Assembly (NCBI GenBank): GCA_030390025.1 | Contig: CM059431.1 | Location: 119,786,001-119,850,000, forward strand | Direction of reading: 5' to 3' | DNA length: 64,000 bases | DNA from: Squalus acanthias | Taxonomy: Eukaryota | The notes under the pieces: model-generated | What the model was told of the DNA's origin: nothing | What the model saw: the letters and a program-made list of their open reading frames with translations, nothing else | Databases searched by the model: none | Position numbers and translations under genes: made by a program | Shown here: positions 28,976 to 62,184 of the stretch, piece by piece | How positions within the stretch are numbered: the first letter of the stretch is position 1 | Layout: the number at the start of each line of letters is the position of its first letter

Positions 28976-30225
28976 ATGGATGCCATTTATACTGTGTCAC
29001 CTTGGTCCGCAGAATTGGACCACGATCAGCCGCAACACCATCAGCACCAGGCACACCTGTAGCACCAACAACAACACCACCAACCTTCTCCTCAACCACC
29101 TGATGCTGCACAGGACAGATGGCATCAGCACAGGGCTGCATCGTGCCGGAGGCGATATCCCCAACACAGGGTATACAGGCAGAGGATGAGCTTCCTCAAC
29201 ATGACTGAACAGCAGTGCCAAAGGAGGCTTAGGCTATCGCGCCAGGTTGTCGCAGACATTTGCATATTGCTCGAGCAAGACCTGCAGCCCAGAGGAGTGG
29301 GTGGACTTGCCTTACCAGTGGCTGTCAAAGTCACCAGCACCCTCAACTTCTTCGCCTCAGGCTCCTTCCAGGGATCTATGGCATCTTGCAGTCGGCCGCC
29401 CACAGATGCATCACACAGGTCACCGATGCCCTGTTTGACAACTCAGCCAATTATATAAATTTTGCAACTGATGAAGCCAGTGTTACTGAGCGGGCGCTTG
29501 ACTTTGCCACTCTGGTTGGCTTCCCACGGGTGCAGTGTGTCATCAACTGCACACATGTGGCCATCACTGCACCCCATCATAACCGAGGAGTCTTTGTCAA
29601 CTGCAAGGGTTTCCACTCCCCCAATGTGCATCTGGTGTGCAACCATAGGAAGATCATCACGCATGTGTATGCCAAATTCCCTGGAAGCTGCCATGACTGT
29701 TCATCCTTTGCCAGTCCACCCTCCCTCAGCTCTTCACACCTCCAAACAGACTTTCCAGCTGGCTGCTTGGAGACAAGGGCTAGCCACTAAAGACGTGGCT
29801 CATGACACCCTTGAGGAGACCAAGTACTGAGGCCCAGAAGAGTTACAATGAAAACCACATTTTCACCAGATATGTCATAGAGCATTCTCAAATTGCGCTT
29901 CAGATGCCTTGACAGATCTGGAGCAGCCCTTCAGTACGCACCATCCAGGGTTTCCAAAATCGTCGTGGTCTGCTGTGCCCTGCACAACATAGCACAGCAG
30001 CGAGGATTAGCGCTGCATGAGGAGCAAGGCACTGAGCGCACAGCCTCTTCAGAGGAGGAGGAGAAGGAGGAGGAGGAGGAGAAGGAGGAGGAGGAGGAGC
30101 ATCAGCTGGAAGATGAGGAGGAGGAGGAGCAGGAGGAACCCGAGTTCCAGATCCCACCAGCACCCTAGCATATTGCTCCCCTGGAGGCCAGGGATGGCCT
30201 CATCATGTCCAGATTTACGCAGTAC
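28976..30225 (+). pseudogene. Harbinger DDE transposase (HARBI1-like), disrupted
   Basis: Motifs [59 protein letters not shown]...CCALHNIA and an acidic tail. Frameshifts and stops present; first catalytic D reads N. Confidence 0.9.
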
Positions 30226-30554: not shown

Positions 30555-32193
30555 TGTAGAATTCGCAAAATTATCGCGATTTTATAATAATGAGAAGGAG
30601 ACATAAAGTTTCGTATAAACAGCTTTATTTCAGCAAAATGCTGTCCTGTTTCAAAAAGGACACAAGCAGCCTGTAAAATGGCCGCCACGCCTCGTGGCAG
30701 AAGGTTCTAGACTTTCAGTAGGCAGACAAGATGGCGTTTCAATAAACATTTCAGCAAGATCGGACAGGACTCAGCACATTGGAGATAATGACAAGACGCG
30801 ATGGGTTTGCATTTTAAACATAAATACTGGAATCGGTTTTCCAGGTACAAACAAGAGCTATTGTACTGGACAATCAAGGACCCATCCAAAGACATTGACA
30901 TGCAAATCCCCCACGGCTCTACGATGAGAGAGCCGTTCGCAGGTACTCACAGCAAGCATTTGGAAGCCCCCAAAACCCCTCCAGGGAGACTACTAGCCGG
31001 TTCCACAATGGGAGAAATATTAACGGGTACTCAGACAGTTACAAGTATCACCGAAACCCATTAACGACAAGTACCACCCCATACAAGAAGTTTGAGCGCC
31101 AATACATGACAAAGATGAACATTTAGATTGGGCGGGAGATAAGGAATTACAGTACTATAAACTGTAGTGTCCAAACGTCCATCTTTCTCTTATTTCTTTA
31201 CCACCGACTGGAGCTCTGGACTCTCATTCTCTGATCCGCTAATTTTCCGGGAGTCAACCTCGTGGCTTGCCGTGAAGATCTGTGGAGAACTGGTCTGCGA
31301 AGGCCTGGAAGCGGGCGCACCATCCCGAGAAGTCGGTAAACGGTGTTGGAACCGAAGGCCCGAGAGGAGATGAGATGAGATGAGATGAGAAGAGAAGAAG
31401 ACGACAACATGTATTGCCACGGTCAGTAAGCCCCGACCGCGCCCAAAAATCGATTAACCACTTCTTTGAATTCTACCGACTTCTTCACAACTGGCCCAGG
31501 AAGACTCTTCTTCGAATTCTATCGAACCGGTGTAGGGCACAGGAAGACTCTTCTTCGAGTGGTGTCCGAACTCCGAGACCAACACAGATCTTCATGGTAG
31601 CAGACGATCCAGCCTGCTAGCCGGAGCCGAAAGCGAGTAAACAAGTGGGGTACAGAGACCCCTGATCAACACGTGAATAGTCAGGTGCTGTGGCGAAAAT
31701 ATCCGAGCAGCGTTTCAGAATTCTCCGAATTGTCCCGATTGGTGAGCATGAGTCTCGATCCTACAGATCTATTTTAGGACAGGCATTGATAGGGGAGGTT
31801 TTGGTTTTAAGGATAATTATAATGTGTGTCCCCTTTTACGATGTGTCGTGCGCTCCTCGTTTCCCTAAAATTAGTTTCATAACTGTGTGTAAGATTGTAC
31901 TGTCATTAATCTGTGCTTATGACATGTATCTCGTAATCTTGAACAATATGCAATAAAGATTTTCCATTTCGTACTATTCAACCGGGTCTACCTGAGTTTT
32001 CTCTGCATTATTGCTCTCGCACCTAAGTCCAGTGTCAGAACCGTAAGGGCGAGTGGGTCGAACCACTCACAGGTGTCTAGTGTCATCAGGCTGGCTGGAG
32101 ACCAGAACAGGCAACAAGGCCTAACACCGCACTAGCACCCAGGCTACGCACAGAGCAGCCTTCGGCACCGAGCCGAGCACGGTATCCCTTACA
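30555..32193 (+). repeat. 5' LTR (1639 bp)
   Basis: TGTAGAA...CCCTTACA. About 22 substitutions and 1 indel versus the 3' LTR by eye. TATAAA at 31156, AATAAA at 31952. Confidence 0.97.
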
Positions 32194-32198
32194 GGAAA

Positions 32199-32216
32199 TG
32201 GCAACCACGAAGGGAC
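32199..32216 (+). promoter_or_regulatory. Primer binding site, tRNA-Arg(UCG)
   Basis: TGGCAACCACGAAGGGAC, 5 nt after the LTR, is complementary to a vertebrate tRNA-Arg 3' end (...CCCUUCGUGGUUGCCA) as recalled. Confidence 0.8.
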
Positions 32217-32251
32217 ACTGGCAGCGAGAAAATAATGTGTTAGACCCTGGT

Positions 32252-33996
32252 ATGAATGTGCGAAAAGTTATGGAAGAGAGAATAGCAGATTATGTTTTTA
32301 GAAAAGTTAATTTGACTAAGAGATGGATAAGTGACCTGCTGGTGGATAAGCATCCGCTAGAGGCAGCCATGAGGTGGACAGGTAGCAAGGAGCATAAAAA
32401 ATCTGTGGAGAAAGCGGTCTGGCTGATGTGTTATAAAAGGCAAGTCCAGATTTCGGACCAGGTCATCATAGCGCAGGTAGCTCAGATCAAGGGTTTAGAG
32501 GTGGAAATGGACGAGAAGGTCGCGGGGGGGCAGCAGCTCATCGCGTCTTTAAATGCGTTGCATCAAGAACGCCAGTTAGTCGCCAACCACCATGAGGCGA
32601 AAATAGATTACCTCGAGTGCCAGGTCACTGAGGCAAAATTAAATGAGGGCTGAATAAGGGAACGATGTGCCCGCCTAGCTGCCCAAATAAAAGCCCAGGA
32701 AGAGAGCTTAAAGGGGGTTAGGGCGGCATATAAGATGGCCCTCGAGGATAAACATGAGGGGGGCGATCACAGCGTCTGCCAAAGAGAGATAGGGAACCTT
32801 AAAGAGGCCCTGAATAAAGCGCACGGCATGGTGTGCCTTATCAGCCCATCAGCACACCAGCCGCCGGTGGGTGGGGAATTTCAGAAATCCCTACCGAACA
32901 AAGCAGAGGAGGTATTTGCCACTGTGCCCTCCGCGCCACCCAGCTATTCAGCAACCTGCGTAAGGGAGGAAGTGGTAGAAGTAGAGGAAGAGGTCCCGAG
33001 GTAGAACAGTCCCCAGAGGTAGTGTCGAAGCCGGGACCGTTGTGTCCGGTCACGGGTCTCAAGAGGGGCCCGAACGGAGACGGTGGGGTAGCGGGGGATC
33101 TCCTCAACCAGCTTGTGTTGCCTCACAGCGCACACCAGCTGAGGGCTATGATCAGCCACGTACGGAAGCTGTCCGAGTCAGACGACCCTTCCGTACATTT
33201 CAGGGAGGTAGAGCAGACCGCAGCCATTAACGGCTGCGACGATGGGGAAAGGGCTAAAATGCTGTTGTTCTCCTTAGACAGCTCGATCCTCCAGTGTCTC
33301 TCAGACGCGAGTAAAAGGGGTAATAGGACCTATGAGGAGTTAAGAGATGAGGTCCTAGAAGTATTGGGGGCGGACGACGAAGGTCCGTTTGTGAGATTGG
33401 GACAGACTAAGCAGATGGAGGGAGAACCCCCGAAGGTTTTTGCCGACAGGCTGTGGCCTGTCTATCAGCGTAGTTGCCCAGGCGCGCCCGAGCGCGTTGA
33501 TTTAGACGGTGTTGGTTTAGCTCACTGGCTCAGATGTATAGTAGCCAACAGCTTACCAGCCGTGAGGGAGCAGGCCAAAGCATGGTTTGACCCCACTAAC
33601 CCCATCACAACTGAGGAGTCGGTCTTAAACCAACTCACGGTAGGGTACCGTAATACCAGGAGTACGGGAGCACATCCCCTTAAGGGAAAGGTGCATGAGG
33701 CGCGGCCCACAGCCCCGGCTCAAAAGGAGTGGCATCAGGAGGGAAATCGCGTCCCACAAGCCAGTAATGCTTGTTTCGGGTGCGGAAAGACAGGGCACTG
33801 GCGCAAGAACTGCAGGAACCCTTGGAAGGAGTCCAGGGATAAAAATCCCGCAGTCCGAGCCCAGGCGCCTGTCTCTGATAAGGGAGCTGGTGTGCCTATC
33901 CATCCCGATGCGATAGAATCAATGTTGGGAGCCATGCGGACCCTCATGATTTTGCACGGAGAGGTAGCAACAGCCCCAGGCAACCCGGACTTCTGA
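32252..33996 (+). pseudogene. gag: gag (N-terminal coiled coil, capsid-like core, CCHC knuckle)
   Basis: ORFs 32198-32653 and 32735-33004 are in the same frame, separated by TGA at 32651. ORF 32833-33996 follows a frameshift near 33000. CFGCGKTGHWRKNC at 33772-33813. Confidence 0.85.
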
Positions 33997-35178
33997 CTGG
34001 AACCGGCGCAGCCCGTTTACCTGTGTCCCTTTAAAAGACACGCACAGGAGGGGGTCCCCTGTGAGGAGGCCAGGTTAAGAGAGCAGGCCTTGAGGGAGGA
34101 GAACACCCGTTTAATGGGGAAAGTAGACGGGCTAGAAGGGCAGCTTGGAGAGCAGGCCCTGCGGGAGGAGAACGCCCGCTTAATGGGGAAAGTAGATGGG
34201 CTGGAAGGGCAGCTGAGAGAGCAGGCCTTGCGGGAGGAGAACGCCCGTTTAATGGGGAAAATGGATGGGTCAGAAGGGCAGCTTAGAGAGATAAAAGCAG
34301 CCTACTGGGTAGCCAGAAGCAGGGAGAATGAGGATTTTAATCAGTGCAATCTGTATAAGCCAGGTGCACAAGGGCCAACCACAGGGGCCAAACCTGCGAG
34401 TGGGGACTCGCAGCCCCGGGTAGGGCCACAGGGCACACAGGCAGGTAAAGCAGATTGCATCAGGGGAGAGGACATCCTAGCAAAATGTAGGATCCTTTAT
34501 TGGGGTTGGGAGTCAGATGAGGGAGAGTTCGAGGAGCTCGACCAGGATAGTGACACAAGCGAAGAGGAGCGGGAATCGGAGGACCAAAGGGTCGCCCCCG
34601 ATTCAGGTAAAGGGAAGATAGGGACTGCAGATGGAGATCCACACAGGGTGGAGACAGAAGATGCAGGTCCCGAACTCAGGGGGGCGGAGCTAGGGGAGGC
34701 GGAGCCAGCGGCTGTGGTGGGACCACAGGACGCGGCAATGGAAGCCTCAGAACCCAGTCCGTCCGCCTTGAACGTCTTGCCCTCGAGGGAGGTAGGGACT
34801 GCGAGTGAAGGGCTGCCTACTGGGCCAAGTAGGGCGGTGCCAGAGGCTGCAGATCCCGAGTTCAGGGAGGCGGAGTCAGGGGAGGCGGAGCCAGCGGCTA
34901 TGGCGGGACCACAGGTCGCAACGGTGGAAGTCTCAAAACCCGGTCCGTCGATCCTGGAGTTCCTGCCCTCGGTAGTTCCCCGTAGGTCAAGTCGGACACC
35001 CCAGCCCAGGAAGATGTGGATAAGTCCCCCGTATGTCCCTAGGCGTAGGTCCAGGGCTAAAGCAGCCCAGGGAGATCCCAGTCCCAGCGCAGCAGCAACA
35101 GGCTGCGGCAGATCAAAAGGAGGGGTCAGCGCCCTCCCACCGTTGGGAGAAGCCTGCGGCAGCAACCGCAGAATTTGA
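33997..35178 (+). CDS. Open frame continuing gag past UGA: coiled-coil repeats plus acidic/Pro-rich tail, occupying the pol position
   Basis: No stop from 33997 to 35175, same frame as the gag C-terminus (93 nt to the annotated 34090 start). Three LREQALREENARLMGKVDGLEGQ-type repeats. Confidence 0.6.
   Translation: MEPAQPVYLCPFKRHAQEGVPCEEARLREQALREENTRLMGKVDGLEGQLGEQALREENARLMGKVDGLEGQLREQALREENARLMGKMDGSEGQLREIKAAYWVARSRENEDFNQCNLYKPGAQGPTTGAKPASGDSQPRVGPQGTQAGKADCIRGEDILAKCRILYWGWESDEGEFEELDQDSDTSEEERESEDQRVAPDSGKGKIGTADGDPHRVETEDAGPELRGAELGEAEPAAVVGPQDAAMEASEPSPSALNVLPSREVGTASEGLPTGPSRAVPEAADPEFREAESGEAEPAAMAGPQVATVEVSKPGPSILEFLPSVVPRRSSRTPQPRKMWISPPYVPRRRSRAKAAQGDPSPSAAATGCGRSKGGVSALPPLGEACGSNRRI
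34078..34284 (+). repeat. 3 x 69-bp in-frame tandem repeat
   Basis: Unit AGAGAGCAGGCCTTG...GAAGGGCAGCTT. Confidence 0.95.
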
Positions 35179-35448
35179 GTAGGCCGCCCTGGGAACGGGC
35201 GGCGCTGTACAGTTATAAGATAAGTGATAAGTTTTTATAGTTTGTAAGTTTTAAGTTTGATAGTTTAATTTTGATAAGTAAAAGGTAAATGATGGGAGTT
35301 TAGATTAGGTTTAGTTAAAAGATCTGTCCAGTGCACATGTTTTTTTTTCGTGAGGCGAGGTCAGGGGACCCGCTCACCCTTCACAAAAGCCAGAGACTCT
35401 TGGGAGGCTGGCTACATCATTTTATCTGATCACAGGAACCAAGGAAGG

Positions 35449-37394
35449 ATGGAACGGATTCTGGTAGTGCTCGCGGCAATCGGATGTGGACTGGCCTATC
35501 GAGGCCGCACCAAGGATGTCGTGGTGTTTGGTTGCTCCGGGGACACGGCCCCCATCGCGGTGGATGGGACCGGGAGGCGAGAGGCTGAGGAGACCGCCAC
35601 CTACTTCCACAAGGGAAGGTGGCCAGGATGGCTGGGAACGAATTCAACTGAATACTCCAGCACAACGGGTTTTGCCTACAAAGAGACTTCTTTAATGTGC
35701 CCCAAAGTGAGGATCATCGCACCCAGAGTCAGCGTCACCGTCGGCAAACGGATTTGTTTGACTTGTAATGGGAATGTTCCATTGAGCCGATGGTGGTGGC
35801 TACGAAAGCTGAGCAAAACCATGAGGAACTCTTCGGTCGAGTGGGAGCGACTGGGTAATAATACCCATCGGACAATTACGGGGACTAACGGACAATTGAA
35901 AGTCTGTTGGGACAAATGGTGGGAACCGGATGAGGGAGTTTATGTTTGTATGTGGGGGTCGAAGCACGTTTGCCCCAAAGGCATCTCCATAGTTTTCATC
36001 AATCAGTGGCAGGATAATGGGAAAGGGATGAGGTGGGATGCAAGCACCAGGGGGTGCGGGGCTCCATACTCTCCGATCCCGGTAAACGCCACTGAGCTCA
36101 TTACGTGCCCACGCAAGGCCCCGCTCACGATTCCGGTGGTTCTGGCTGAGGAAGAAGGGTGCCCTAAAACCAGTAAGGGACCCGGGAATGGTTTGGTACT
36201 GGTCCCTACAGACCAGCTACTATTTCAGGGGGTACATTATGCGGTGGCCTCGGTGATTTTAAACCTCACCGAGGTGCGGTTGCCAAAGTGGTGCCCCAAA
36301 GAGACGGAACAATTATATCAGGTCCTGTTGACCAAAATGTTTAGGCAATTTTATGAGTTCGATTTCGCGGAAATTGATAAAACAAGTTTGTACACTGCAC
36401 CACATGAAGTTTTGGGCCAGGTGGGGAGGCAAAGAAGGGGTGTTGTGAACGACATGTTCACTGCGTTTAATAAGCATACCCAGTCCCCGTGGACTGCGGA
36501 CGATCAAACCACACCATTATGGGTGTAGTTTTACGTATGCCGGTTTTGGGCGACACAGCAAAGCCCGCCCCGGTATATCGGGTAGAGAACATTGGTGTCA
36601 TTCAGGGGGGAGCCCACATTCGCTATGCAGCGGTTCCACCTTACGTCATCCGCTGGGAGCAAACGATGACAGGTACAGATCTCTCTGGTTGTTGTGGCAG
36701 GGGAGCACACATAATCCTGTGTCCCCAGCACTTGAATGCCTTTTGATTACCACAGTGCGGGTTCAGAACGGCTGGCGCCAAGCCCATGAATTACACCATG
36801 GAGGCAATGGCACAAGATCATGTGCCTCCGCAGGTAGCATACCTCGGGGGTGGATCATATTGTGTTACCACTGCAGCGCAACACTACCAGCATGGAAACC
36901 GTAGCCGGTGTCCGGTAAGTGACAGCAGTTTCTGTTTTAAACCCAGGGCTCAAGTTCAAGTGGCACAGCAGCGAATTGTTCCGATCCCTGAACCATCCAC
37001 TGTTCATCTAACTGTAAAGGAGAATTTTACCGACTTGCAGCGATTCGTCGCGCATTTCGGATACCTCATTCCCCCTCTCCCTGAACACCTCACCAAACTT
37101 TTGAAGGCCGTTGCGGTTTCGCAAAAGCATTATTATACCCTTGAGCAGAAAACTGTCGAGATAGGGTCAGAGATTTTAGACATAGTAATCCCACCGTAGT
37201 GGGATCTGTTCACAAATATTCAAGTGCCGTCCTGGATCAGAATAACCTCCCACATTTTACTTGTATGCCAAGTGTTTATTGTGATATACTTATTGGTCGT
37301 GCATTGTAAGAGAGGCAAACGCCTTACCAAGAACGAAAACACGGGAGAGTGGCGAGAGCGTTACATGCGCATGCACGATGAAAGCACCGCATAA
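35449..37394 (+). pseudogene. env: env-like glycoprotein: signal peptide, Ig-like domain, furin site, Cys-rich F-like ectodomain, TM
   Basis: MERILVVLAAIGCGLA signal; RQRR|GVVNDMF at 36427-36438; frameshift/deletion near 36475; stops at 36744 and 37197; TM ILLVCQVFIVIYLLVVHC then KRGKR; stop at 37392-37394. Candidate splice acceptor CACAG ends at 35435. Confidence 0.85.
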
Positions 37395-37832
37395 ACGGCC
37401 AAAATGGCGTCACTCCAGTTTTTCCACGTGCGCCTCGGAATTATTGTAATTGATTGTGATTTTTCTCAGAAACTGTAATTAAGTTTGGAACTCTGTATGT
37501 TTAAGAGTTGTTTTTTTTTGATTATTTTGATTTTGTGTTGTTAATATGATTGTTTGGTTGTTTTTGTTTTCTTTTTCTTCCTTGAATAAAAAATATGCAT
37601 ATGCAGGTGGTGCGAGAGGCATCGGCCTGGGTACACCTGGAGGAAATACAAGCGGTGTAAGTTAAAGGCAAATGCTGCCTACGGTGTTAAAAAAATTTAA
37701 TTTTTCCTGGGAAATATGGACGACACGGAGACCCTAGATAGTTTTAAGTTATGGGAATTTTTAGATATGGAGAATCGAGATAATATTGCTCACCACAATG
37801 TTTTTGATACGATAAGCGGAGTTATTCGCATC

Positions 37833-37844
37833 AACGGGAGGGAC
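37833..37844 (+). promoter_or_regulatory. Polypurine tract
   Basis: AACGGGAGGGAC immediately before the 3' LTR. Confidence 0.7.
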
Positions 37845-39484
37845 TGTAGAATTCGCAAAATTATCGCGATTTTATAATAATGAGAAGGAGACATAAAGTT
37901 TCATATAAACAGCTTTATTTCAGCAAAATGCTGTCATGTTTCAAAAAAGGACACAAGCAGCCTGTAAAATGGCCGCCACGCCTCGTGGCAGAAGGTTCTA
38001 GACTTTCAGTAGGCAGACAAGATGGCGTTTCAATAAACATTTCAGCAAGATCGGACAGGACTCAGCACATTGGAGATAATGACAAGACGCGATGGGTTTG
38101 CATTTTAAACATAAATACTGGAATCGGTTTTCCAGGTACAAACAAGAGCTATTGTACTGGGCAATCAAGGACCCATCCAAAGACATTGACATGCAAATCC
38201 CCCACGGCTCTACGATGAGAGAGCTGTTCGCGAGTACTCACAGCAAGCATTTGGAAGCCCCCAAAACCCCTCCAGGGAGACTACTAGCCGGTTCCACAAT
38301 GGGAGAAATATTAACGGGTACTCAGACAGTTACAAGTATCACCGAAACCCATTAACGACAAGTACCACCCCATACAAGAAGTTTGAGCGCCAATACATGA
38401 CAAAGATGAACATTTAGATTGGGCGGGAGATAAGGAATTACAGTACTATAAACTGTAGTGTCCAAACGTCCATCTTTCTCTTATTTCTTTACCACCGACT
38501 GGAGCTCTGGACTCTCATTCTCTGATCCGCTAATTTTCCGGGAGTCAACCTCGTGGCTTGCCGCGAAGATCTGTGGAGAACTGGTCTGCGAAGGCCTGGA
38601 AGCGGGCGCACAATCCCGAGAAGTCGGTAAACGGTGTTGGAACCGAAGGCCCGAGAGGAGATGAGATGAGATGAGATGAGAAAAGAAGAAGACGACAACA
38701 TGTATCGCCACGGTCAGTAAGCCCCGACCGCGCCCGAAAATCGATTAACCACTTCTTTGAATTCTACCGACTTCTTCACAACTGGCCCAGGAAGACTCTT
38801 CTTCGAATTCTATCGAACCGGTGTAGGGCACAGGAAGACTCTTCTTCGAGTGGTTTCCGAACTCCGAGACCACCACAGATCTTCATGGCAGCAGACGGTC
38901 CAGCCTGCTAGCCGGAGCCGAAAGCGAGTAAACAAGTGGGGTACAGAGACCCCTGATCAACACGTGAATAGTCAGGTGCTGTGGCGAAAACATCCGAGCA
39001 GCGTTTTAGAATTCTCCGAATTGTCCCGATTGGTGAGCATGAGTCTCGATCCTACAGATCTATTTTAGGACAGGCATTGATAGGGGAGGTTTTGGTTTTA
39101 AGGATAATTATAATGTGTGTCCCCTTTTACGATGTGTCGTGCGCTCCTCGTTTCCCTAAAATTAGTTTCATAACTGTGTGTAAGATTGTACTGTCATTAA
39201 TCTGTGCTTATGACATGTATCTCGTAATCTTGAACAATATGCAATAAAGATTTTCCATTTCGTACTATTCAACCGGGTCTACCTGAGTTTTCTCTGCATT
39301 ATTGCTCACGCACCTAAGTCCAGTGTCAGAACCGTAAGGGCGAGTGGGTCGAACCACTCACAGGTGTCTAGTGTTACCAGGCTGGCTGGAGACCAGAACA
39401 GGCAACAAGGCCTAACCCCGCACTAGCACCCAGGCTACGCACAGAGCAGCCTTTGGCACCGAGCCGAGCACGGTATCCCTTACA
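37845..39484 (+). repeat. 3' LTR (1640 bp)
   Basis: Direct repeat of 30555-32193. Confidence 0.97.
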
Positions 39485-40860
39485 GGTGCTACCCCTCTAG
39501 TTTCAGCAGAGGTAGAGGCAGGCTGCTCACTTCCCTGCTGCAACTGCTTAGACACTCTTGGCGGTCGTCCTCTGGGTTTTGGAGCCTCTGATGGCCCCAC
39601 CAAAGTCTGCTCCTCCTGCGACTGTGCAGGGGCAGACTCGACCATCACGATCCGAGGAGACATCGGGGGCTCTGACTGAGGGGGTGGCAATGGGGGAAAA
39701 GTGCAAGCGCTTTGAGAGGTGCCCACACTTCCCTCTCCCATCTCACTGTCATCCCTCTCATCGGCCACCTGCACTTCGCTGCTAGAAAGGAGCTGGAGAG
39801 CACCTTGCTGCACATCAGTGGGGCCATGAGGACCCATGTCTATGTTGACATCCTTCCTAGACAGGAGGTCTATGAGGCTTTGCCATCTATTCTCCACAGA
39901 TAGCCATCTATTCTCCATAGAGACCATGTGCTTCTGTGAGTGGCGCATTAGCTGCTCCATGCCGCAAAACCTGTCAGAACCCCCTGCACTTCTTGCTGCA
40001 CCTCCAGGGTCGCCCTTTTTCTGGATGGCCGCTGAGGCTCAGCATCTGCATGCAGCTGAGCAGAGCTGGGAGCGTCCTGTGCCCTCCAGCGAGGAGTCTC
40101 CACTGCTGTCCCTGTCTCCACCATCTGCTCTTGCTCACTTATGACTTGTGACGGACCCAGTGACAACACTACTCTATCTTGCGTTGAACCCACTGAGGTA
40201 TGTGTATCTGCGCTGGTGCTGGGCGCGCTCATGTCTGGTGATGCTCACAGGCTGGAGGCTCCTCTGAGGAGTCGTCTTCTTCTTCCTCCGGGACAGTGCG
40301 GTGGGAGGGGGGAGGCTCTTGATGGACCTGTGGGAGAGTAAAGAGATGAGTTAGATATACCATATGAAGAATGGGTGCACATTATGACCATTCACTGGCT
40401 GCTGACATCAGTCCCCATATGAGTGACTGCTGTATGCCATGTAGCTCTATGATATGTAATTCTGTCACCAGGTTGCTGAGATGTCTCCCGCTCTCTGTCT
40501 CCCACCTCCAGCTGCTCGGCCACTCCCAAAACTTCCAATGCAGCCTCCTCTGCTGTTGTGAGGGTGGCAAATGATGGAGGCCCACCTCCAGTCCTCTCCC
40601 TCTCCCTCTTACTGTGCGTGCTCTTCTCCTGCAAGGAGTGAAAGAAGAGAAGTTTGAGTGAGATTGATGGAATGAGTGTAAGGAATGGATGGGTTGTAGC
40701 TTTAGAGGGAGACTATAATGGATTGGGGTGGCAATGCCAAGTGGCCTCCTTGTGTGGTGTTAGTTGGTATGATTGCATTAGGATGAGGGTGAGTGTGAGG
40801 GGTGGTTAGTCAGATGGAGATGTGATAATGTAGATAGAGAGAGAGGGATGGGTGGTCGTG

Positions 40861-41024
40861 CAAGGTATGTTGGTGTGAGTAAGGATGTGCAGGACTAGGG
40901 TTGGGAAGGCAGCGAGTCAAGGTATGTTGGTGTGAGTAAGGATGTGCAGGAGTAGGGTTGGGAAGGCAGCGATTCAAGGTATGTTGGTGTGAGTAAGGAT
41001 GTGCAGGAGTAGGGTTGGGAAGGC
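40861..41024. repeat. ~3 x 57-bp tandem repeat in the Myb-gene intron
   Basis: Unit CAAGGTATGTTGGTGTGAGTAAGGATGTGCAGGAGTAGGGTTGGGAAGGCAGCGA(G/T)T. Confidence 0.92.
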
Positions 41025-42054
41025 AGGATGTTGAGGATGTGATGAGAGGCACAGCAGGATGAACTTGAGTGTGGCTTTGGACTCACCTTTCCAGATCTAA
41101 TGATATCATTAAAATGTTTGCGGCACTGCACCCAGGTTCTCCTGAACACATCCTTGCTGTTGACCTCCTCTGCAATTTGGAGCCAGGCTCTTTTTGTCTC
41201 CTGGAGAGGTCTCTGCTGCCCACTGGAAGGGAAGAGTACCTCCCTGCGTGTTCTGACTCCCTCCACAAGCATATGGAGAGAGTCATCGGAGAACCTGGGT
41301 GCAGCCGTCTGCCTCTGTGCAGCCATCTCTCCAACTGTTTTGAGCAATGAAAACCTCCAGTGTGCTGCCTGCAAACTCCTAGATGAACCTTCAAATGCAA
41401 TGTGGCCATGGCTCCTTTGAATATATCGGCTGAAAACGCGTCATGGATGATATCATCAGACCCGCACCATTTAATTGGGCCAGGTAACTTAATAGACCCC
41501 ATTATCGCAAAGTCGATTTCTGCAGCAGGATGGAAGCAACAATGGGGTTGCGACCCGCCACGCCGACCGCCCGCACCCGACCCGCCCATGTACAGAAAAT
41601 TCCGGCCATTAACTCTGTTTCTCTCCACAGATGCTGCCTGAACTATGAGTGTTTCCAGCATTTTCTGTTTTTATACCATTGGTGTGCCGGGTGCTGACAG
41701 AGGGCCAGAGCGTGGTAACTCTTGACTTAGGAAGTCCTCGACCTCAGCTCCACCCCTAGGCTTCACTGGCCTTACTTCTGCCCCTTACACGGTTCAGCAA
41801 CAAATTCCAGTGTAGGCCAGGACCTGGCTTTTTCAAATCATGGCAACATTTCTGGCCTTCCCTTCTGGAGTTGCGGCAGCAGTGCACCAGAGCAGCAAAG
41901 CAATTTTGGGATAATTGTCTTCACGCTAAAAGAGTGTTTGGATTGCGTTAATGAATAAAGCTGTTCTAAGATCTGTACTGTTTGGAAAATTCCTAATGTG
42001 TTGACCGCCCCTTTAACTTATTTTTAAAAATCTGAAATACAATCGTGTCACAAT

Positions 42055-55256: not shown

Positions 55257-57704
55257 CATAGATACATAGATACATAGAAGATAGGAGCAGGAGTAGGCCA
55301 TCCGGCCCTTCGAGCCTGCTCCGCCATTTAATGAGATCATGGCTGATCCTCCAATTCAGTATCCCGTCCCCGCCTTCTCTCCGTAACCCTTAACCCCTTT
55401 TGCCTGTAGAAATATATCTAATTCCCTCTTAAATATATTTAATGAGCTGGCGTACACTGCCCTCTGTGGCAATGAGTTCCACAGGTTCACCACCCTCTGA
55501 GTGAAGAAATTCCCCCTCATTTCTGTCCTAAATGGTTTAGCCCTTATCCTTAAATTATGTCCTCTAGTTCTGTTCTCACCCGCCAAGGGAAACATTCCTT
55601 CTGCATCTAGTCTGTCTAGACCTGTCAGAATTTTATACACTTCTATGAGGTCCCCTCTCAATCTTCTAAACTCCAGTGTGTACATCCCTAAACTACATAG
55701 TCTCTCCTCATAGGTCAATCCCGCCATTCCTGGTATCAGCCTGGTGAATCGCCGCTGCACCCCCTCCATGGCAAGAACATCTTTCCTCAGATGAGGCGAC
55801 CAAAACTGTACACAGTACTCGAGGTGTGGTCTCACCAGTGCCCTGTACAGCTGCAGCAAGGTATCCCTGTTCCTGTATTCCAACCCTTTTGCTATGAAGG
55901 CCAGCATACCGTTTGCCTTCTTGACCGCCTGTTGCACCTGCATGCTCGCCTTCAGTGACTGGTGTACAAGAACACCCAGGTCTCTCTGTACTTCCCCCTC
56001 TCCCAATTTATTGCCATTTAAATAATAATTTGCCCTCCCGTTCCTGCACCCAAGGTGGATAACTTCGCACTTGTCCACATTATAGTGCATCTGCCATTTA
56101 TCCGCCCAATCACCCAGTCTGTCCAAATCGCTCTGGAGCTTCCTGGTCTCCTCCTCTGAGCCCACCCCCCCTCCTAGTTTAGTGTCATCTGCAAATTTGG
56201 AAATGCTGCATCCGACTCCCTGATCCAGGTCATTAATGTAAATTGTGAACAGCTGGGGACCCAGGACAGATCCCTGTGGTACCCCACTTGTTACTGCCTG
56301 CCATTCAGAAAATGAGCCGTTTATTCCAACTCTCTGTTTTCTATCTGACAGCCAGTTCTCTATCCACGTCAATACTTTCCCCTTTATCCCATGAGCTTCA
56401 ATTTTCCATGCTAATCTTTTATGTGGGACCTTGTCGAAGGCCTTTTGGAAGTCCAGGTACACCACATCTACTGGCTCTCCCCCATCTATTTTACCAGTTA
56501 CTCCCTCAAAAAATTCCAATAGATTAGTCAAGCACGATTTACCCTTTGTAAATCCATGTTGACTCTGTCCTATCCTGTCCCCATTTGCTAAGTGCTCCGC
56601 TATTTCATCCTTAATGATGGACTCCAGCATTTTGCCCACAACTGATGTAAGGCTTACAGGTCTGTAATTACCTGCTTTTTCCTTACCCCCCTTTTTGAAT
56701 AGTGGGGTAACGTTAGCTACCCTCCAATCCATGGGCACTGTTCCCGAGTCTAATGAATTCTGAAAAATCATACTTAGTGCATCCGCTATCTCTAGGGCCA
56801 CCTCCTTCAGTACCCTAGGATGCATGTTATCAGGCCCTGGGGATTTGTCCGCCTTCAATCCCTTTAGCTTCCTTAACACCATATCCTTAGAGATACTGAT
56901 TTGCGTCAGTTCCTCCTTTGCCAATGTCCCTATTTTTCCCGATATCCCAGGGAGGTTTTTTGTGTCTTCCTTCGTAAAGACTGACCCAAAGTATGCATTT
57001 AGTTGGTCTGCCATTTCCTTATTTCCCGTTATATATTCCCCCGTATCTGACTGCAATGGACCAACTTTGGTTTTCACCAGTCTTTTCCTCTTGATATACT
57101 TATAAAAGCTTTTGGAGTTAGTTTTTATATTTTCCGCCAGCTTGCTTTCGTAAGCTATTTTGCCCCTCTTGATTAAGCCCTTTGTCCTCCTTTGCTCTAT
57201 CTTAAACTGTTCCCAATCTTCCGCTCTGGCGCTTTTTTTGGCTATTTTATACGCCCTATCTTTGGATTTTATGCTGTCTCTAATTTCCCCTGTTATCCAC
57301 GGTTGAGTCACCTTTTTAGATTTCCTTTTATGCCAGATTGGTATAAACAATTTTTGCAATTTTGTCATTCTATATTTAAATGCTTGCCATTGTTTATCTA
57401 CCTCCAGTCCTCCCAGGAACGTTGTCCAATCAGACCTACTCAGTTCCCGTCTAATGGCATCATAATTCCCCTTGTTTAAATTCAGGACCTTAGTCTCTGA
57501 GTCAATTTCTTCGCTCTCCATTTCGAGTGAGAAATCGATCATGTTATGATGGCTCTGACCCAAGGGTCCCCGTACAACAAGATTACTAATTAGTCCCTTC
57601 TCATTGCACAGTACCCAGTCCAATATAGCCTGTTCCCGAGTTGGTTCCTCGACATATTGATCCAGATAACCATCCCTTAAACACTCAAGGAATTCCTCCT
57701 CCTC
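55257..57704 (-). mobile_element. Young 5'-truncated CR1 LINE with uninterrupted RT frame
   Basis: ORF 55356-~57704 (NYRPVSLTS, DFQKAFD, GVPQGSVLGP, FADD) and (TATGTATC)n tail. Possible CTCATA TSD at 55255-55260 and 57702-57707. Confidence 0.96.
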
Positions 57705-57984
57705 ATATTTATATCTATATCCATCTCGTAGATTGTTAAGTATAGAAGGAGTGTTTACTGACAGTGGTACTAAGACCAAGATTAAAGTCTCTAGAGACAA
57801 CAAGTCCCTGATCAGGCCTTGTAGAACTTAAATCAAAGCTCCCTCAATATACCATTGAGGTCTAGAAATTTCTTATAAAGTTCATATTAAACCCTAACCA
57901 AGGTTAGGTCCTGACAAAATGGCAAACCCTGTCGGAATTGACCAAGTCTTTTTATTAGGAAATTCAAACGATTGCTAGCATCAA

Positions 57985-58605
57985 GTCATTTACTGTGATG
58001 GATCGTCAATGATGATTAAAAAAGGGACATCTCAACAATCCTCAGCTGGGATGGGGATAGTAGTCAGGACCTTTCGAGATTCCTATTCTTTTTATCCGGA
58101 AGAATTACTGTCCATACCCTTGGCCATAAGACAGCGCAATATGCTGAAGCCGCAGCACTACGGTATGCTTTAGAAAAGGCAGACCCTATTAAACCCACAT
58201 TAATCTGTATGGATAGTGACTATTGTAAAAGAGGATATAACCAAGATCTAGTTTTCTGGGAACAAACAATCTTTACTAATCATAAGGGTAAATCCATAAA
58301 ACACAAGTCATTGTGGGAAGACATTCTCCGTTCGAGAATGGAGAAACAAAATTGTCAGGTGATTCAGTAAACGGGCAAACCACTGGGACAGTACACTCAA
58401 AAGGAAAGTCTTGCAGGCGAACAAGCGAAATGTTCGGTCTGCATGACACTCCCTCGAGAGGGGCCTGCCAATATTAGTGTAATCACTAGGGCAGAATGGG
58501 CAGCTAATTAGGATGAGGAACTGATTCAGCTATTAGACCCAATAAAAGAGAATCCACCAGGATATCCATCAAAGTACTTTTACTCGGAAACCCCTACTGG
58601 TATTA
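57985..58605 (+). pseudogene. pol: Foamy-like pol: RNase H and start of integrase
   Basis: VIYCDGSS...SAGMGIVV...LGHKTAQYAEAAALRYALEKA...LICMDSDY...GKSIKHKSLW, then ELIQLL...GYPSKYFY. Collinear with the prototype foamy virus motifs YTDGS/AGMGIV/HTAQMAE/GYPKQYTY. Confidence 0.88.
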
Positions 58606-61069
58606 ATAGAACATAGAACATAGAACAGTACAGCACAGTACAGTTCCTTCGGCCCTCGATGTTGTGCCGAGCATTGTCTGAGACCAAGATCAAGCTATCA
58701 CACTCCCTATCTATCCATGTGCTTATCCAATAACCGCTTGAAAGTTCCTAAAGTGTCCGACTCCACTATCACAGCAGGCAGTCCATTCCACACCCCAACC
58801 ACTCTCTGAGTAAAGAATCTACCTCGGACATCGCTTCTATATCTCCCCCCATGCACCTTATAGTTATGCCCCCTTGTAACAGCTGCCTCTACCCGAGGAA
58901 ATAGTCTCTGAACATCCACTCTATCTATCCCCCTCATCATCTTATAAACCTCTATTAAGTCACCTCTCATCCTCCTCCTCTCTAAAGAGAAAAGCCCCAA
59001 CTCCCTCAATCTTTCCTCATAAGACCTCCCCCCCAAACCAGACAGCATCCTGGTAAATCTCCTTTGCACTCTTTCCAATGCTTCCACGTCCTTCCTATAG
59101 TGAGGTGACCAGAACTGCACACAATATTCCAAATGTGGTCTCACCAAGGTCCTGTACAGTTGCAGCATAACCTCACGGTTCTTAAACTCAAACCCTCTGT
59201 TAATAAACGCCAACACACCATAGGCCTTCTTTACTGCTCTATCCACTTGAGTGGCAACCTTCAGAGATCTGTGGATATGAACCCCCAGATCCCTCTGCTC
59301 CTCCACGTTCCTCAGAACCCTGCCGTTGACCCTGTAATCCTTATTCAAATTTGCCCTACCAAAATGAATCACCTTGCACTTATCAGGGTTAAATTCCATC
59401 TGCCATTTTTTGGCCCAGCTCTGCATCCTATCAATGTCTCTTTGCAGCCTACAACTGCCCTCCACCTCATCCACTACTCCACCAATCTTGGTGTCATCAG
59501 CAAATTTACTGATCCACCCTTCAGTCCCCTCCTCCAAGTCATTGATAAAAATCACAAACAGCAGAGGACCCAGCACCGACCCCTGTGGCACACCGCTGGT
59601 AACTGGTCTCCAGTCCGAATATGTTCCATCCACCACCACCCTCTGCCTTCTATGAGATAGCCAGTTACTTATCCAATCGGCCAAATTTCCCTCTATCCCA
59701 CAACTCCTTACTTTCTTCATGAGACGACCATGGGGAACCTTATCAAACGCCTTGCTAAAATCCATGTATATGACATCAACTGCTCTACCTTCATCTACAC
59801 ACTTAGTTACCTCCTCAAAGAATTCAATCAAATTTGTTAGGCAAGACTTACCCTTCACGAATCCGTGTTGACTTTCCCTGATTAAGTTGCCCCTTTCCAA
59901 ATGGTCATAAATCCTATCCCTCAGGACCTTTTCCATTATCTTACCAACCACCGAAGTAAGACTAACCGGCCTATAATTACCAGGGTCATTCCTATTTCCT
60001 TTCTTGAAGAGAGGAACAACATTCGCCACTCTCCAGTCCTCTGGCACCATTCCCGTGGACAGTGAGGACCCAAAGATCAAAGCCAGAGGCTCTGCAATCT
60101 CCTCCCTTGCCTCCCAAAGAATCCTAGGATATATCCCATCTGGCCCAGGGGACTTATCGACCCTCAGGTTCTTCAAAATTGCTAAAACATCTTCCCTCAG
60201 AACATCTACCACCTCCAGCCTATCCACCTTTATCACACTCTCATCCTCAAGAACATGGCCCCTCTCCTCGGTGAACACTGACGAAAAGTATTCATTCATC
60301 ACCTCTCCTATCTCTTCTGACTCCATGCACAAGTTCCCACTACTGTCCTTGACCGGCCCTACCCTCACCCTGGTCATTCTTTTATTTCTCACATAAGAGT
60401 AAAAAGCCTTGGGGTTTTTCTTGATCCGACCCGCCAAGGACTTCTCATGCCCCCTCCTAGCTCTCCTAAGCTCTTTTTTTAGCTCCGTCCTTGCTACCTT
60501 GTACCCCTCAATTGACCCAACTGAACCTTGTTTTCTCATCCTTACACACGCTTCCTTTTTCCTCTTGACTAGACATTCAACCTCTTTTGTGAACCATGGT
60601 TCTCTCACTCGGCCATTTCCTCCCTGCCTGACAGGGACATACCTATCAAGGACACACAGTAATTGCTCCATGAAAAAGCTCCACTTTTCGTTTGTGCCTT
60701 TCCCTGATAGTTTCTGTTCCCATCTTGTACTCCCTAATTCTTGCCTAATCGCATCATAATTACCCCTCCCCCAATTATAAACCCTGCCCTGCCGTATGGC
60801 CCTATTCCTCTCCATTGCAATAGTGAAAGTTACCGAAAATGGTCACTATCTCCAAAGTGCTCTCCCACATACAAATCAATCACTTGGCCCAGTTCATTAC
60901 CCAGTACCAAATCCAACGTGGCCCCACCTCTTGTCGGCCTATCCACATATTGTGTCAGGAAACCCTCCTGCACACACTGTGCAAAAACTATCCCATCCGA
61001 ACTGTTTGACCTATAAAGGTTCCAATCAATATTTGGAAAGTTGAAGTCACCCATGACAACTACTCTGTG
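58606..61069 (-). mobile_element. Young 5'-truncated CR1 LINE (second subfamily)
   Basis: ORF 58707-60815 with full RT motifs. One frameshift to the endonuclease part (MGDFNFPNIDW, GDSDH). (TTCTATG)n tail. Confidence 0.96.
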
Positions 61070-62184
61070 ACCTCCACACCCATTGGCTCCTGTGAAAGCT
61101 GATGAGCCAATGGGAAAATTCTTTATTGACTTCATTGGACCACTTCCTCGTCTTTGGACTACAGACATGTTTTTGTTTGTGTAGGTGGATGCACTTCCTT
61201 ATTCTGGCTGGTCCCCACAAAAACTGTTTCAGAAAACGCACTCGCCAAAGCTATTACTGACATAATTACTGTAGCTGTTGCCCCCAAAATCTTACACTCC
61301 GTTAAAGGCAGAGCCTTTGTCTCCAAGGTCTTCAAAGACTACTGCGAACAAAGGGGGATTGGCTTAGAGCACAGCACGCCACGTCATCCGCAATCAGCGG
61401 GGCAGGTGGAATGTAAAAACCAGGAAGTAAAAAAGCTATTGGTCAAACTGTTGAGAATCAGGGGAAATAAGTGGACCGCCATCATTCCGGAGGTGCAGCT
61501 ATCACTTAATAATGTGCCCGCATCTGCATCAGGGACAGTGTCCCCTAAAACTCCATATTATCTGATGTATGGGGTTGAGATGCATACACCGCTTACCCAT
61601 AGTTCTTTTATTGCCTCTACACTCTGATTCCTTGACCCAACAGCGACAGTTAGATTTTAAAAAAGAAGTAACAGAGGAGATACATCAAATTGCTCAGAGG
61701 ATAAGGGAGACAAATAGGCAAAAAAAAATTGACGAACAAAGCATGGCAACCCCTAGCAGGAGAATGGGTACAGGAAAAGAAGTTTGAGCAAAAACCTGGT
61801 TTAAGACCTAAATGGAAAAAACCTGTTCAAATACATTCTGTTATTAACGAAAGAACAGTTAAAATACATATTAATCAGCTGAATGGCAAGCATATTCTTA
61901 AAACTGTCTCCATAGAAAATCTCAAAAGATGTCCTGCGGGATACCGGAATGGAGGAACAATACAAGGTGCAGTCGTACACTGTCTTTCAAGACCCAGCTT
62001 GGAGCACGACACAGGAAATGGATGCGATCGAACTACTGACGACGGTCAGTCAGGCGGTGTCGCCGACTCCTCCACACGATTCTTGGCAACGCCTCAGAAA
62101 TTGGATTCGCAAAAAGCCACAACCAAAACAAGTAAAGATCAACAAGTTACTTCAACGAAGGAGGAAAACACTGCGGATGGATAA
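61070..62184 (+). pseudogene. pol: Foamy-like integrase core and C-terminal domain
   Basis: KFFIDFIGPLP, FWLVPTK, PKILHSVKG (second catalytic D reads V), HSTPRHPQSAGQVECKN, WQPLAGEWVQEK...LRPKWKKP...TVSIENLK. Frameshifted. Confidence 0.92.

Follow-up and report, generated by a model that had tools for sequence, protein, structure and literature searches.

The window analysed here, a stretch of 64,000 nucleotides from Squalus acanthias (contig CM059431.1, positions 119,786,001 to 119,850,000), contains a provirus with long terminal repeats (LTRs) at 30555-39486, and in the envelope (env) frame of this provirus lies an open reading frame (ORF) of 359 aa on the plus strand (35449..36528). Our analysis indicates that the N-terminal part of the encoded Env very probably holds an immunoglobulin (Ig)-like domain of the V type. 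Moreover, with a probability of roughly 70%, we read the Env of this family as a one-chain attachment and fusion protein, in which an old, receptor-binding Ig-like module is set upstream of a fusion machine of the F type. What makes this protein unusual is the N-terminal placement of the domain together with its canonical Cys-Trp-Cys signature.

Signature and probable fold of the N-terminal extension

A sequence-only reading had pointed to an Ig V/I-set pattern at 35701-35960, and in fact this stretch, which corresponds to residues 85-170 of the ORF, holds the letters quoted there with the Cys and Trp positions and the spacing as described. The motif ICLTC occupies residues 102-106 (Cys103 and Cys106), WWW residues 115-117 and DEGVYVC residues 161-167; the distance from Cys106 to Cys167 is 61 residues, and the V-type Cys/Trp/DxGxYxC signature is thereby present. 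It is probable that Cys106 and Cys167 make the pair between strands B and F, that Trp115-117 belong to strand C and that DEGVYVC forms strand F; the G strand probably extends to about 36060. Besides this pair, the domain contains two further cysteines, Cys103 and Cys153. Cys103, Cys106, WWW and DEGxYVC are retained in 20/20 sister copies, and this retention tells little alone because the sister copies are 95-98% identical.

The fold was examined by several types of test, no single one of which is decisive and all of which agree on a V-type Ig-like fold for the N-terminus of Env. The search with Pfam gave Ig_3 for residues 85-167 of the window ORF (profile positions 2-74 of 78), with an E-value of 0.05, 0.022 or 0.13 depending on the piece scanned. 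The best Pfam match fell into the Ig clan for 6 of the 17 env N-termini taken from different lineages, namely the window (E 0.022), L045 (0.057), L046 (0.073), P0010 (0.0085), P0039 (V-set, 0.045) and L052 (Ig_3, 4.6e-4). Moreover, a relative from Chiloscyllium, P0013, is labelled 'Ig-like domain-containing protein' in UniRef, and the neighbours of residues 80-200 in the ESM Atlas, at 0.91-0.93, are mostly clusters of Ig, I-set or V-set.

The predicted structure points in the same direction. A second AlphaFold model, made for residues 17-235 from a 20-row alignment, has nine strands, and among the Foldseek matches listed for it, at E-values of 4e-3 to 2e-2, the titles are almost all variable domains of antibodies, nanobodies and IgNAR. 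In a comparison of the same model with 48,161 chains by VIA, TREM-1 came out best (Z 6.4, root-mean-square deviation (rmsd) 2.9, 91 residues aligned), followed by CD300a, TREM2, NKp44, the Fc-mu receptor, pIgR and catshark CD8-alpha. The V-set receptors in this list (TREM-1, TREM2, CD300a, NKp44, Fc-mu receptor and pIgR) resemble the shark domain with Z 5.2-6.4 over 80-91 residues at 2.9-3.5 A and share its Cys-Trp-Cys arrangement; they differ from it in that the identity is 13-16% and that the shark domain, here a low-confidence model, has the extra Cys103 and Cys153.

Profile comparisons with decoys make up the third type of evidence. They were made between 15 env segments (the window, sister subfamilies, divergent lineages of the same genome, other sharks and frogs) and 18 V-set exons of the same genome, which had been found with the Pfam V-set model. 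When the two sets are aligned by hhalign, a probability of 76% and an E-value of 2.3e-5 are obtained over the A'-B strands; sub-groups give E-values of 1e-2 to 1.5e-4 with colinear alignments over 81-95 columns, against 0.05-0.18 for the reversed controls. With a hidden Markov model (HMM) of the host V-set exons, the env segments obtain -1.3 to 9.4 bits, whereas no reversed decoy exceeds 1.4 and none of 75 shuffles exceeds 3.8; 10/15 env segments lie above every shuffle (Mann-Whitney p 6e-9). In the reciprocal direction, the host exons score up to 16.2 bits, the reversed sequences no higher than 2.0 and the shuffled ones no higher than 8.0 (p 1e-8).

Several observations weigh against this reading, and most of them would suit a chance look-alike, that is, an N-terminal extension made of a beta-rich surface-subunit domain of another fold, as is common in the fast-evolving surface subunits of retroviruses. 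Every Pfam Ig match lies below threshold: Ig_3 in the window has 13-16 bits against a cut-off of 30, no Ig family arrives at the Pfam gathering score in any member (the best, Ig_3 in L052, has 21.1 bits against 30), and 11/17 env N-termini have no Ig-clan match. The models are of low confidence, with a predicted local distance difference test (pLDDT) score of 37-61 in the Ig region of the whole-Env model, and a mean of 44 in the N-terminal model, 55-70 in its Ig part. Foldseek gave nothing at E <= 0.001 for the N-terminal model; the best VIA Z of 6.4 is middling by the tool's own scale (<8), and two FlgD chains, which are non-Ig sandwiches, stand in the VIA top 20 as its main non-Ig entries. 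Besides, a profile of the family N-termini found nothing significant among PDB sequences (the best Ig match was CRTAM at E 0.45, followed by nanobodies at 0.6), single-group hhalign probabilities are just 4-8%, and the decoy p-values overstate independence because the env segments are mutually related. It also counts against the reading that the window copy itself is broken, so nothing functional is in place there.

Still, independent types of test all indicate the Ig clan, the real sequences outscore reversed and shuffled decoys in both directions, the alignment to host V-set exons is colinear over the 81-95 columns given above, and the signature is found again in lineages whose identity in the Ig region is otherwise 13-23%. 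A resemblance by chance is accordingly judged rather unlikely, and the V-type Ig-like domain proposed by the sequence-only reading is kept as probable on the strength of sub-threshold Pfam matches, neighbours, models and decoy-controlled profiles. The AlphaFold and Foldseek check which that reading had suggested turned out mixed, as the nine strands and V-set best matches are offset by low pLDDT and the lack of a Foldseek match at E <= 0.001.

F-type core and proposed working of the Env

The core of the protein was analysed on a sister copy with a natural, intact frame of 783 aa rather than on the window copy. By sequence it resembles little: against Pfam, up to E 10, no family besides a weak Ig_3 is found, neither PF00523 (Fusion_gly) nor foamy Env, and phmmer gives 0 matches among PDB sequences at E up to 10. 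The AlphaFold model of the whole Env, built from a 42-row alignment, is confident for residues ~240-650 and poor for 1-233. With this model, Foldseek returns 235 matches in the PDB at E <= 0.001, led by the F proteins of human parainfluenza virus 3 (E 4.9e-11), respiratory syncytial virus, Langya virus and Nipah virus; by VIA, postfusion Nipah F is matched with Z 11.8 (287 residues aligned, rmsd 5.1) and chain 8rm1_D of postfusion foamy Env with Z 8.5. Among predicted viral proteins in BFVD, arthropod mononegavirus-like glycoproteins, baculovirus F and two walleye epsilonretrovirus Envs are some of the best matches. In nearly all VIA rows, the matched range of the model opens at residue 245 opposite residues 26-38 of the F chain, which are the start of mature F2, and therefore everything before residue ~240 is an N-terminal addition to an F-type protein.

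As modelled, the Env core thus has the paramyxovirus/pneumovirus F fold from residue ~245 to ~700, and the Ig-like domain sits in an extension of ~220 aa upstream of the F2 equivalent, ahead of a conserved multibasic site. This site, RQRR at residues 327-330, is followed by GVVNDMFTAFN, and the basic sites align in relatives; a furin-type cleavage at RQRR would fit this sequence. The earlier claim that the domain lies before a furin-cleaved fusion module is therefore upheld as regards the signal-like N-terminus, the multibasic site and the F-type core, all seen in the intact sister copy, and fails for the window copy, in which the module is broken.

From these parts a working scheme may be drawn. 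The Env would start with a signal-like N-terminus, continue with the ~220-aa extension bearing the V-type Ig-like domain, a Pro-rich linker, an F2-like segment and the multibasic site, and end with an F1-like subunit that would comprise the fusion peptide, heptad repeats, membrane anchor and tail. A furin-type protease would cut the chain at RQRR; a putative F-type trimer would display the N-terminal Ig-like domains to a cell-surface receptor, and binding of the receptor would trigger the F-type refolding by which the membranes are merged. That the Ig-like domain is what binds the cell-surface receptor seems most likely because the element has one env gene, where paramyxoviruses use a separate attachment protein.

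The domain could also be a genuine Ig-like domain with another role, for example a prefusion cap or clamp, a glycan shield or an aid to oligomerisation, the receptor contact then being made by residues 20-84 or by the core. This would agree with two sequons at residues 127 and 137 within the domain and with its conservation. In fact, between the intact copy and the L046 subfamily the rate of nonsynonymous substitution (dN) is 0.24 in the Ig-like domain, 0.34-0.35 in its flanks, 0.22 in the F2-like segment and 0.10 in F1, which makes the V-type domain the best-conserved part of the ~220-aa extension, while receptor-contact surfaces often vary most. Only dN is used here, since the synonymous rate (dS) is saturated and the Nei-Gojobori dN/dS was uncomputable for most regions. 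By these regional values the Ig-like domain is under purifying selection and, as the sequence comparison indicates, belongs to the faster-evolving, surface-subunit half of Env. Against another role it can be said that, where one gene supplies the whole envelope, attachment is most simply assigned to an Ig-like domain exposed at the N-terminus, and that subfamilies differ considerably more in the N-terminus than in the fusion core (for a sister subfamily, the identity is ~51% in the former and 70-77% in the latter). We therefore give this alternative a small share of the probability and retain receptor binding as the preferred role.

Relatives and age of the Ig-like module

When the whole Env was searched against 1.84 billion representatives, 50 proteins came out at E <= 0.001. 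Of these, 33 were looked up and 24 could be named, comprising 18 from elasmobranchs (skate, sawshark, houndshark, bamboo sharks, bullhead shark, catshark and whale shark), 4 from frogs and 2 from coelacanth; among these 24, none is annotated as an envelope and none is from a teleost. Three gene models of sawshark and bullhead shark (P0003, P0004 and P0034) have env pieces joined to Niban-1-like, zinc-finger and F-box (fbxo15) proteins, and these fusions are probably annotation chimeras over endogenous retrovirus (ERV) insertions. A further candidate, the 5014-aa protein P0042 with 16 matches to residues 22-88 at ~30% identity, was rejected as a chance match inflated by Gly/Ala/Asp-rich repeats.

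Distant full-length relatives align from residue ~221-234 onward, and their N-termini differ. The sequence-only reading had asked whether related envs share the domain, and its motifs are encountered at the same place in divergent lineages of the same genome, of other sharks and of frogs. The 20/20 close copies, the sister subfamily, the skate and other shark relatives keep the four cysteines and the Trp triplet. In the P0013-like lineages of this genome, the N-termini have x-C-x-C in the B strand, a Trp ~10-15 residues on, a G-I/V-P-Y turn, L-N-W-P, and R-H-x-G-x-x-x-C or H-E-G-x-Y-x-C in the F strand; the frog proteins have a comparable B-strand Cys, C-strand Trp and F-strand xGxYxC. By hhalign the window clade and the P0013 clade are matched with E 4.8e-4, the reversed control giving 0.44. 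Apart from these, one shark env clade (P0012, P0023, P0031 and P0033) has a different, Cys-rich N-terminus without the Trp and without a Pfam Ig match; in the MAFFT alignment its ICFTC falls on strand B and its YVC on strand F of the Ig-like domain, and judged from this alignment it may be a degenerate Ig-like form.

Since the motifs stand at the same place in divergent shark and frog lineages, the module is regarded as ancient in the env family, and it possibly came from a host gene of the Ig superfamily (IgSF) in the distant past. The sequence-only reading had proposed something more recent, namely a module captured from the host. If an IgSF exon had been captured recently, the domain could be an immune mimic or decoy instead of a receptor-binding part. 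Viruses are known to take up host Ig-like domains, and the best structural neighbours are innate immune receptors (TREM-1, CD300a, NKp44 and pIgR). However, the search with residues 60-215 against 5.8 billion proteins gave, among the proteins of 430-1371 aa, skate ERV env alone and no host IgSF protein, and no host IgSF protein is present among the 50 matches of the whole Env. In addition, the domain is common to divergent shark and frog env lineages, and no host family is singled out because the VIA rows lie within less than 1 Z unit of each other. A recent capture is thus considered very unlikely, and the closest host IgSF protein that was to be sought did not emerge from these searches.

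An older origin can be sketched tentatively. In a deep-branching lineage of retroviruses from sharks, coelacanth and amphibians, an ancient V-set domain of host type might have joined the N-terminus of an F-type fusogen at an early stage, thereby uniting attachment and fusion in one gene. It might then have persisted and diversified over hundreds of millions of years, and might still be carried by families that have, in a cartilaginous fish, thousands of young copies and a large number of open env frames. This scenario is possible and, in our judgement, doubtful as a whole.

The provirus, its family and related systems

The features of the provirus are collected in Table 1. Its losses were mapped against two longer copies of the same genome.

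Table 1. Parts of the provirus in the window, with the evidence or remark for each
Feature	Position	Strand	Evidence or remark
5' LTR	30555..32195	+	~1.64 kb; TG start, CA end; blastn of both ends
gag with CCHC zinc knuckle	32196..33996	+	split across three frames in the window copy
Junction in place of ~3.7 kb of pol (protease (PR), reverse transcriptase (RT), RNase H, integrase (IN))	33964..34339	+	376 nt
Remnant of the acidic, Pro-rich C-terminal extension of pol (past integrase)	34340..35178	+	joins without a break onto the 1137-aa pol frame in the full-length relative
env start and hydrophobic signal-like segment MERILVVLAAIGCGLAYRG	35449..35505	+	sequence reading; helix 4-11 in the model
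Ig-like (V-type) domain, probable, Env residues 85-170	35701..35960	+	Pfam, ESM Atlas, AlphaFold, Foldseek, VIA, hhalign, HMM decoys
Pro-rich linker, from the Ig-like domain to Cys238-Pro-Lys	36061..36159	+	conserved core begins CPK...GLVL in the alignment; pLDDT <50
F2-equivalent segment, closing with multibasic RQRR (36427-36438)	36160..36438	+	structural alignment; basic sites align in relatives
407-bp deletion point	36472	+	residues ~342-477 of the intact protein (fusion peptide, heptad repeat A) gone; frame shifted
Remaining env (F1 head, heptad repeat B, membrane anchor, tail)	36473..37394	+	out of frame; three-frame translation against the intact copy
3' LTR	37845..39486	+	purine-rich tract before the LTR

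Between the two LTRs, 22 mismatches and 1 gap occur in 1642 aligned columns, which corresponds to 98.6% identity (blastn of 30555-32195 against 37845-39486), and a repeat finder run on the window caught just their first 400 nt; a target-site duplication was looked for at the LTR ends, and none was readable. The gag region is read in stop-to-stop frames at 32081-32653, 32654-33004 and 32818-33996, where the full-length relative has a single frame of 640 aa; zf-CCHC is matched with E 0.0013 and is alone in Pfam, no other family being found at E up to 0.01. At the pol junction, window positions 33964 and 34339 correspond to 5109 and 8798 of the full-length relative. Within the junction lie three 69-nt tandem repeats (34078-34290), and these encode the heptad-like peptide REQALREENARLMGKVDGLEGQL, which is similar to the coiled-coil N-terminal part of gag. 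The frame of env is shifted because of the 407-bp deletion at ~36472, and stops are found at 36744-36746 and 37197-37199. The window provirus is defective in pol and env, and a working Env is impossible from this copy.

The family as a whole is young and very abundant, with thousands of copies. A six-frame search of the 3.7-Gb genome yielded 9033 first-look candidates for env, of which 113 were scored, with 92-100% identity, and about 100 of the 113 are, by our count, free of stops in the match. The full-length relative encodes gag, PR, RT, a Ty3-like RNase H tether, a second RNase H, IN with a long acidic tail, and env; in Pfam it is matched by RVP, RVT_1, RT_RNaseH_2/RT_RNaseH, RNase_H, Integrase_H2C2 and rve. 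Among 19 sister loci, 10 have the C-terminus of pol, 7 have the same pol-deletion junction as the window and 2 have neither; the env stretch of 407 bp that is deleted in the window is kept in 19/19. The pol-less form of the provirus (gag, junction, pol tail and env) is common to the window and L003, L007, L010, L012, L014, L017 and L018, some pol-less members retaining an open env frame, and since the junction is shared by the window and 7 of the 19 loci, this form seems to have spread as a non-autonomous subfamily. Older, divergent F-type env lineages also exist in this genome, e.g. L028, L031, L047, L052 and L053: at least 83 matches show 33-81% identity to the bamboo-shark protein P0013, mostly with stops, and at least one has an open frame of 784 aa. 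The gag, ORF and env set of the window was also considered as a domesticated host gene, which was rejected because of the LTRs and the thousands of copies.

Other elements are present in the window around the provirus. Fragments of a Harbinger-type transposase (DDE_Tnp_4) lie just upstream of the 5' LTR at 29233-30165 on the plus strand. Downstream of the 3' LTR, a Myb/SANT-like ORF (40898-41440, minus strand) stands beside three 57-nt tandem repeats (40861-41031). Farther on, LINE-type frames for reverse transcriptase and endonuclease are found on the minus strand (55359-57827, 58710-60842 and 60833-61198), and among them (55359-62181) are plus-strand pieces of another retrovirus-like pol, namely RNase H (58020-58367), integrase (61130-61624) and SH3 (61705-62181).

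For comparison with known systems, solved structures place the RT palm and fingers of the family closest to foamy virus PR-RT (4e-32), followed by murine leukaemia virus (MLV, 8e-23), Ty3 (8e-17) and human immunodeficiency virus (1e-12); for the connection and RNase H region the nearest is MLV/XMRV, and for IN it is Ty3, then prototype foamy virus. The epsilonretrovirus Envs matched among BFVD predictions are those of walleye epidermal hyperplasia virus 1 (E 1.2e-13) and walleye dermal sarcoma virus (E 8.4e-12), so the epsilonretrovirus Env, going by predicted structures, may be F-type as well; these Envs are longer (1159-1317 aa), and no sequence similarity to them appears among the named matches of the 1.84-billion-protein search. 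In gammaretroviruses, the receptor-binding domain of Env has an Ig-like core.

Of the Envs described so far, those of lokiretroviruses and foamy viruses come closest. The lokiretroviruses, as described in the main text of the paper that introduced them, have gag-pol-env, a dual RNase H and an F-like Env (Wang and Han 2020, PMC7947760). With these the shark family has in common the LTR, gag-pol-env organisation and the tether plus RNase H, as seen in the full-length shark relative (the window copy being without pol), and further an Env with signal peptide, multibasic site, fusion peptide, coiled coil, membrane anchor and kinship to paramyxovirus/pneumovirus F; moreover, the frogs and coelacanth that hold relatives of the shark env belong to host groups named in that text. 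The differences are that a salmonid lokiretrovirus element matches PF00523 with E 2.2e-7 (PMC7947760), whereas the shark env has no such match even at E 10, and that cartilaginous fishes stand outside the five host classes given in the main text, as teleosts do outside the 24 named relatives of the shark env. In that main text the terms Chondrichthyes, shark, receptor and N-terminal are absent, and neither an N-terminal Ig-like domain nor a part that binds a receptor is mentioned. We call the shark family lokiretrovirus-like, by architecture rather than by RT phylogeny. A search of the full-text literature found no paper linking lokiretroviruses with immunoglobulin domains, and for F-type ERV envelopes in cartilaginous fishes it returned an arenavirus-like study only.

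The paramyxovirus and pneumovirus F proteins share with the shark Env the core fold and the order of F2, multibasic site, fusion peptide, heptad repeat A, head, heptad repeat B and anchor, even though identity is just 6-17% in the structural alignments. In those viruses, by contrast, the attachment protein is separate and F2 comes right after the signal peptide, where the shark Env has ~220 residues with the Ig-like domain first. The foamy virus Env likewise combines, according to the portion of a 2024 study used here, the domains I-III of the F fold with a receptor-binding domain upstream of the cleavage site (PMC11468914). It resembles the shark protein as a retroviral Env of the F fold, consistent with the VIA match to 8rm1_D and with an RT closest to foamy PR-RT. 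It differs in that its receptor-binding domain (217-543) is inserted by two linkers between elements of domain III and is not described as Ig in that portion of the text (PMC11468914), whereas the shark module precedes the whole F2 equivalent; furthermore, the shark family has no Pfam match to foamy Env (E up to 10) or Gag, and its gag has a CCHC knuckle. Since domain II of both paramyxovirus F and foamy Env is described in the same text as an Ig-superfamily fold (PMC11468914), the earlier remark that Ig folds are foreign to such Envs was too strong, and it is the N-terminal position and the canonical Cys-Trp-Cys signature that remain unusual.

Altogether, F-type retroviral envelopes are a recent discovery, with the lokiretroviruses in 2020 and the foamy Env structures in 2024, and the present family seems to extend them to the cartilaginous fishes. 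How F-type retroviral envelopes find their receptors is largely unknown outside the foamy viruses, and the N-terminal Ig-like module offers a concrete candidate for receptor binding as well as a marker for tracing how attachment domains joined the F machine. If the reading is true, a fused V-set domain would differ both from the separate attachment protein of paramyxoviruses and from the inserted non-Ig domain of foamy viruses. Finally, such a young and extremely abundant family is useful for studying ERV activity in sharks and rays.

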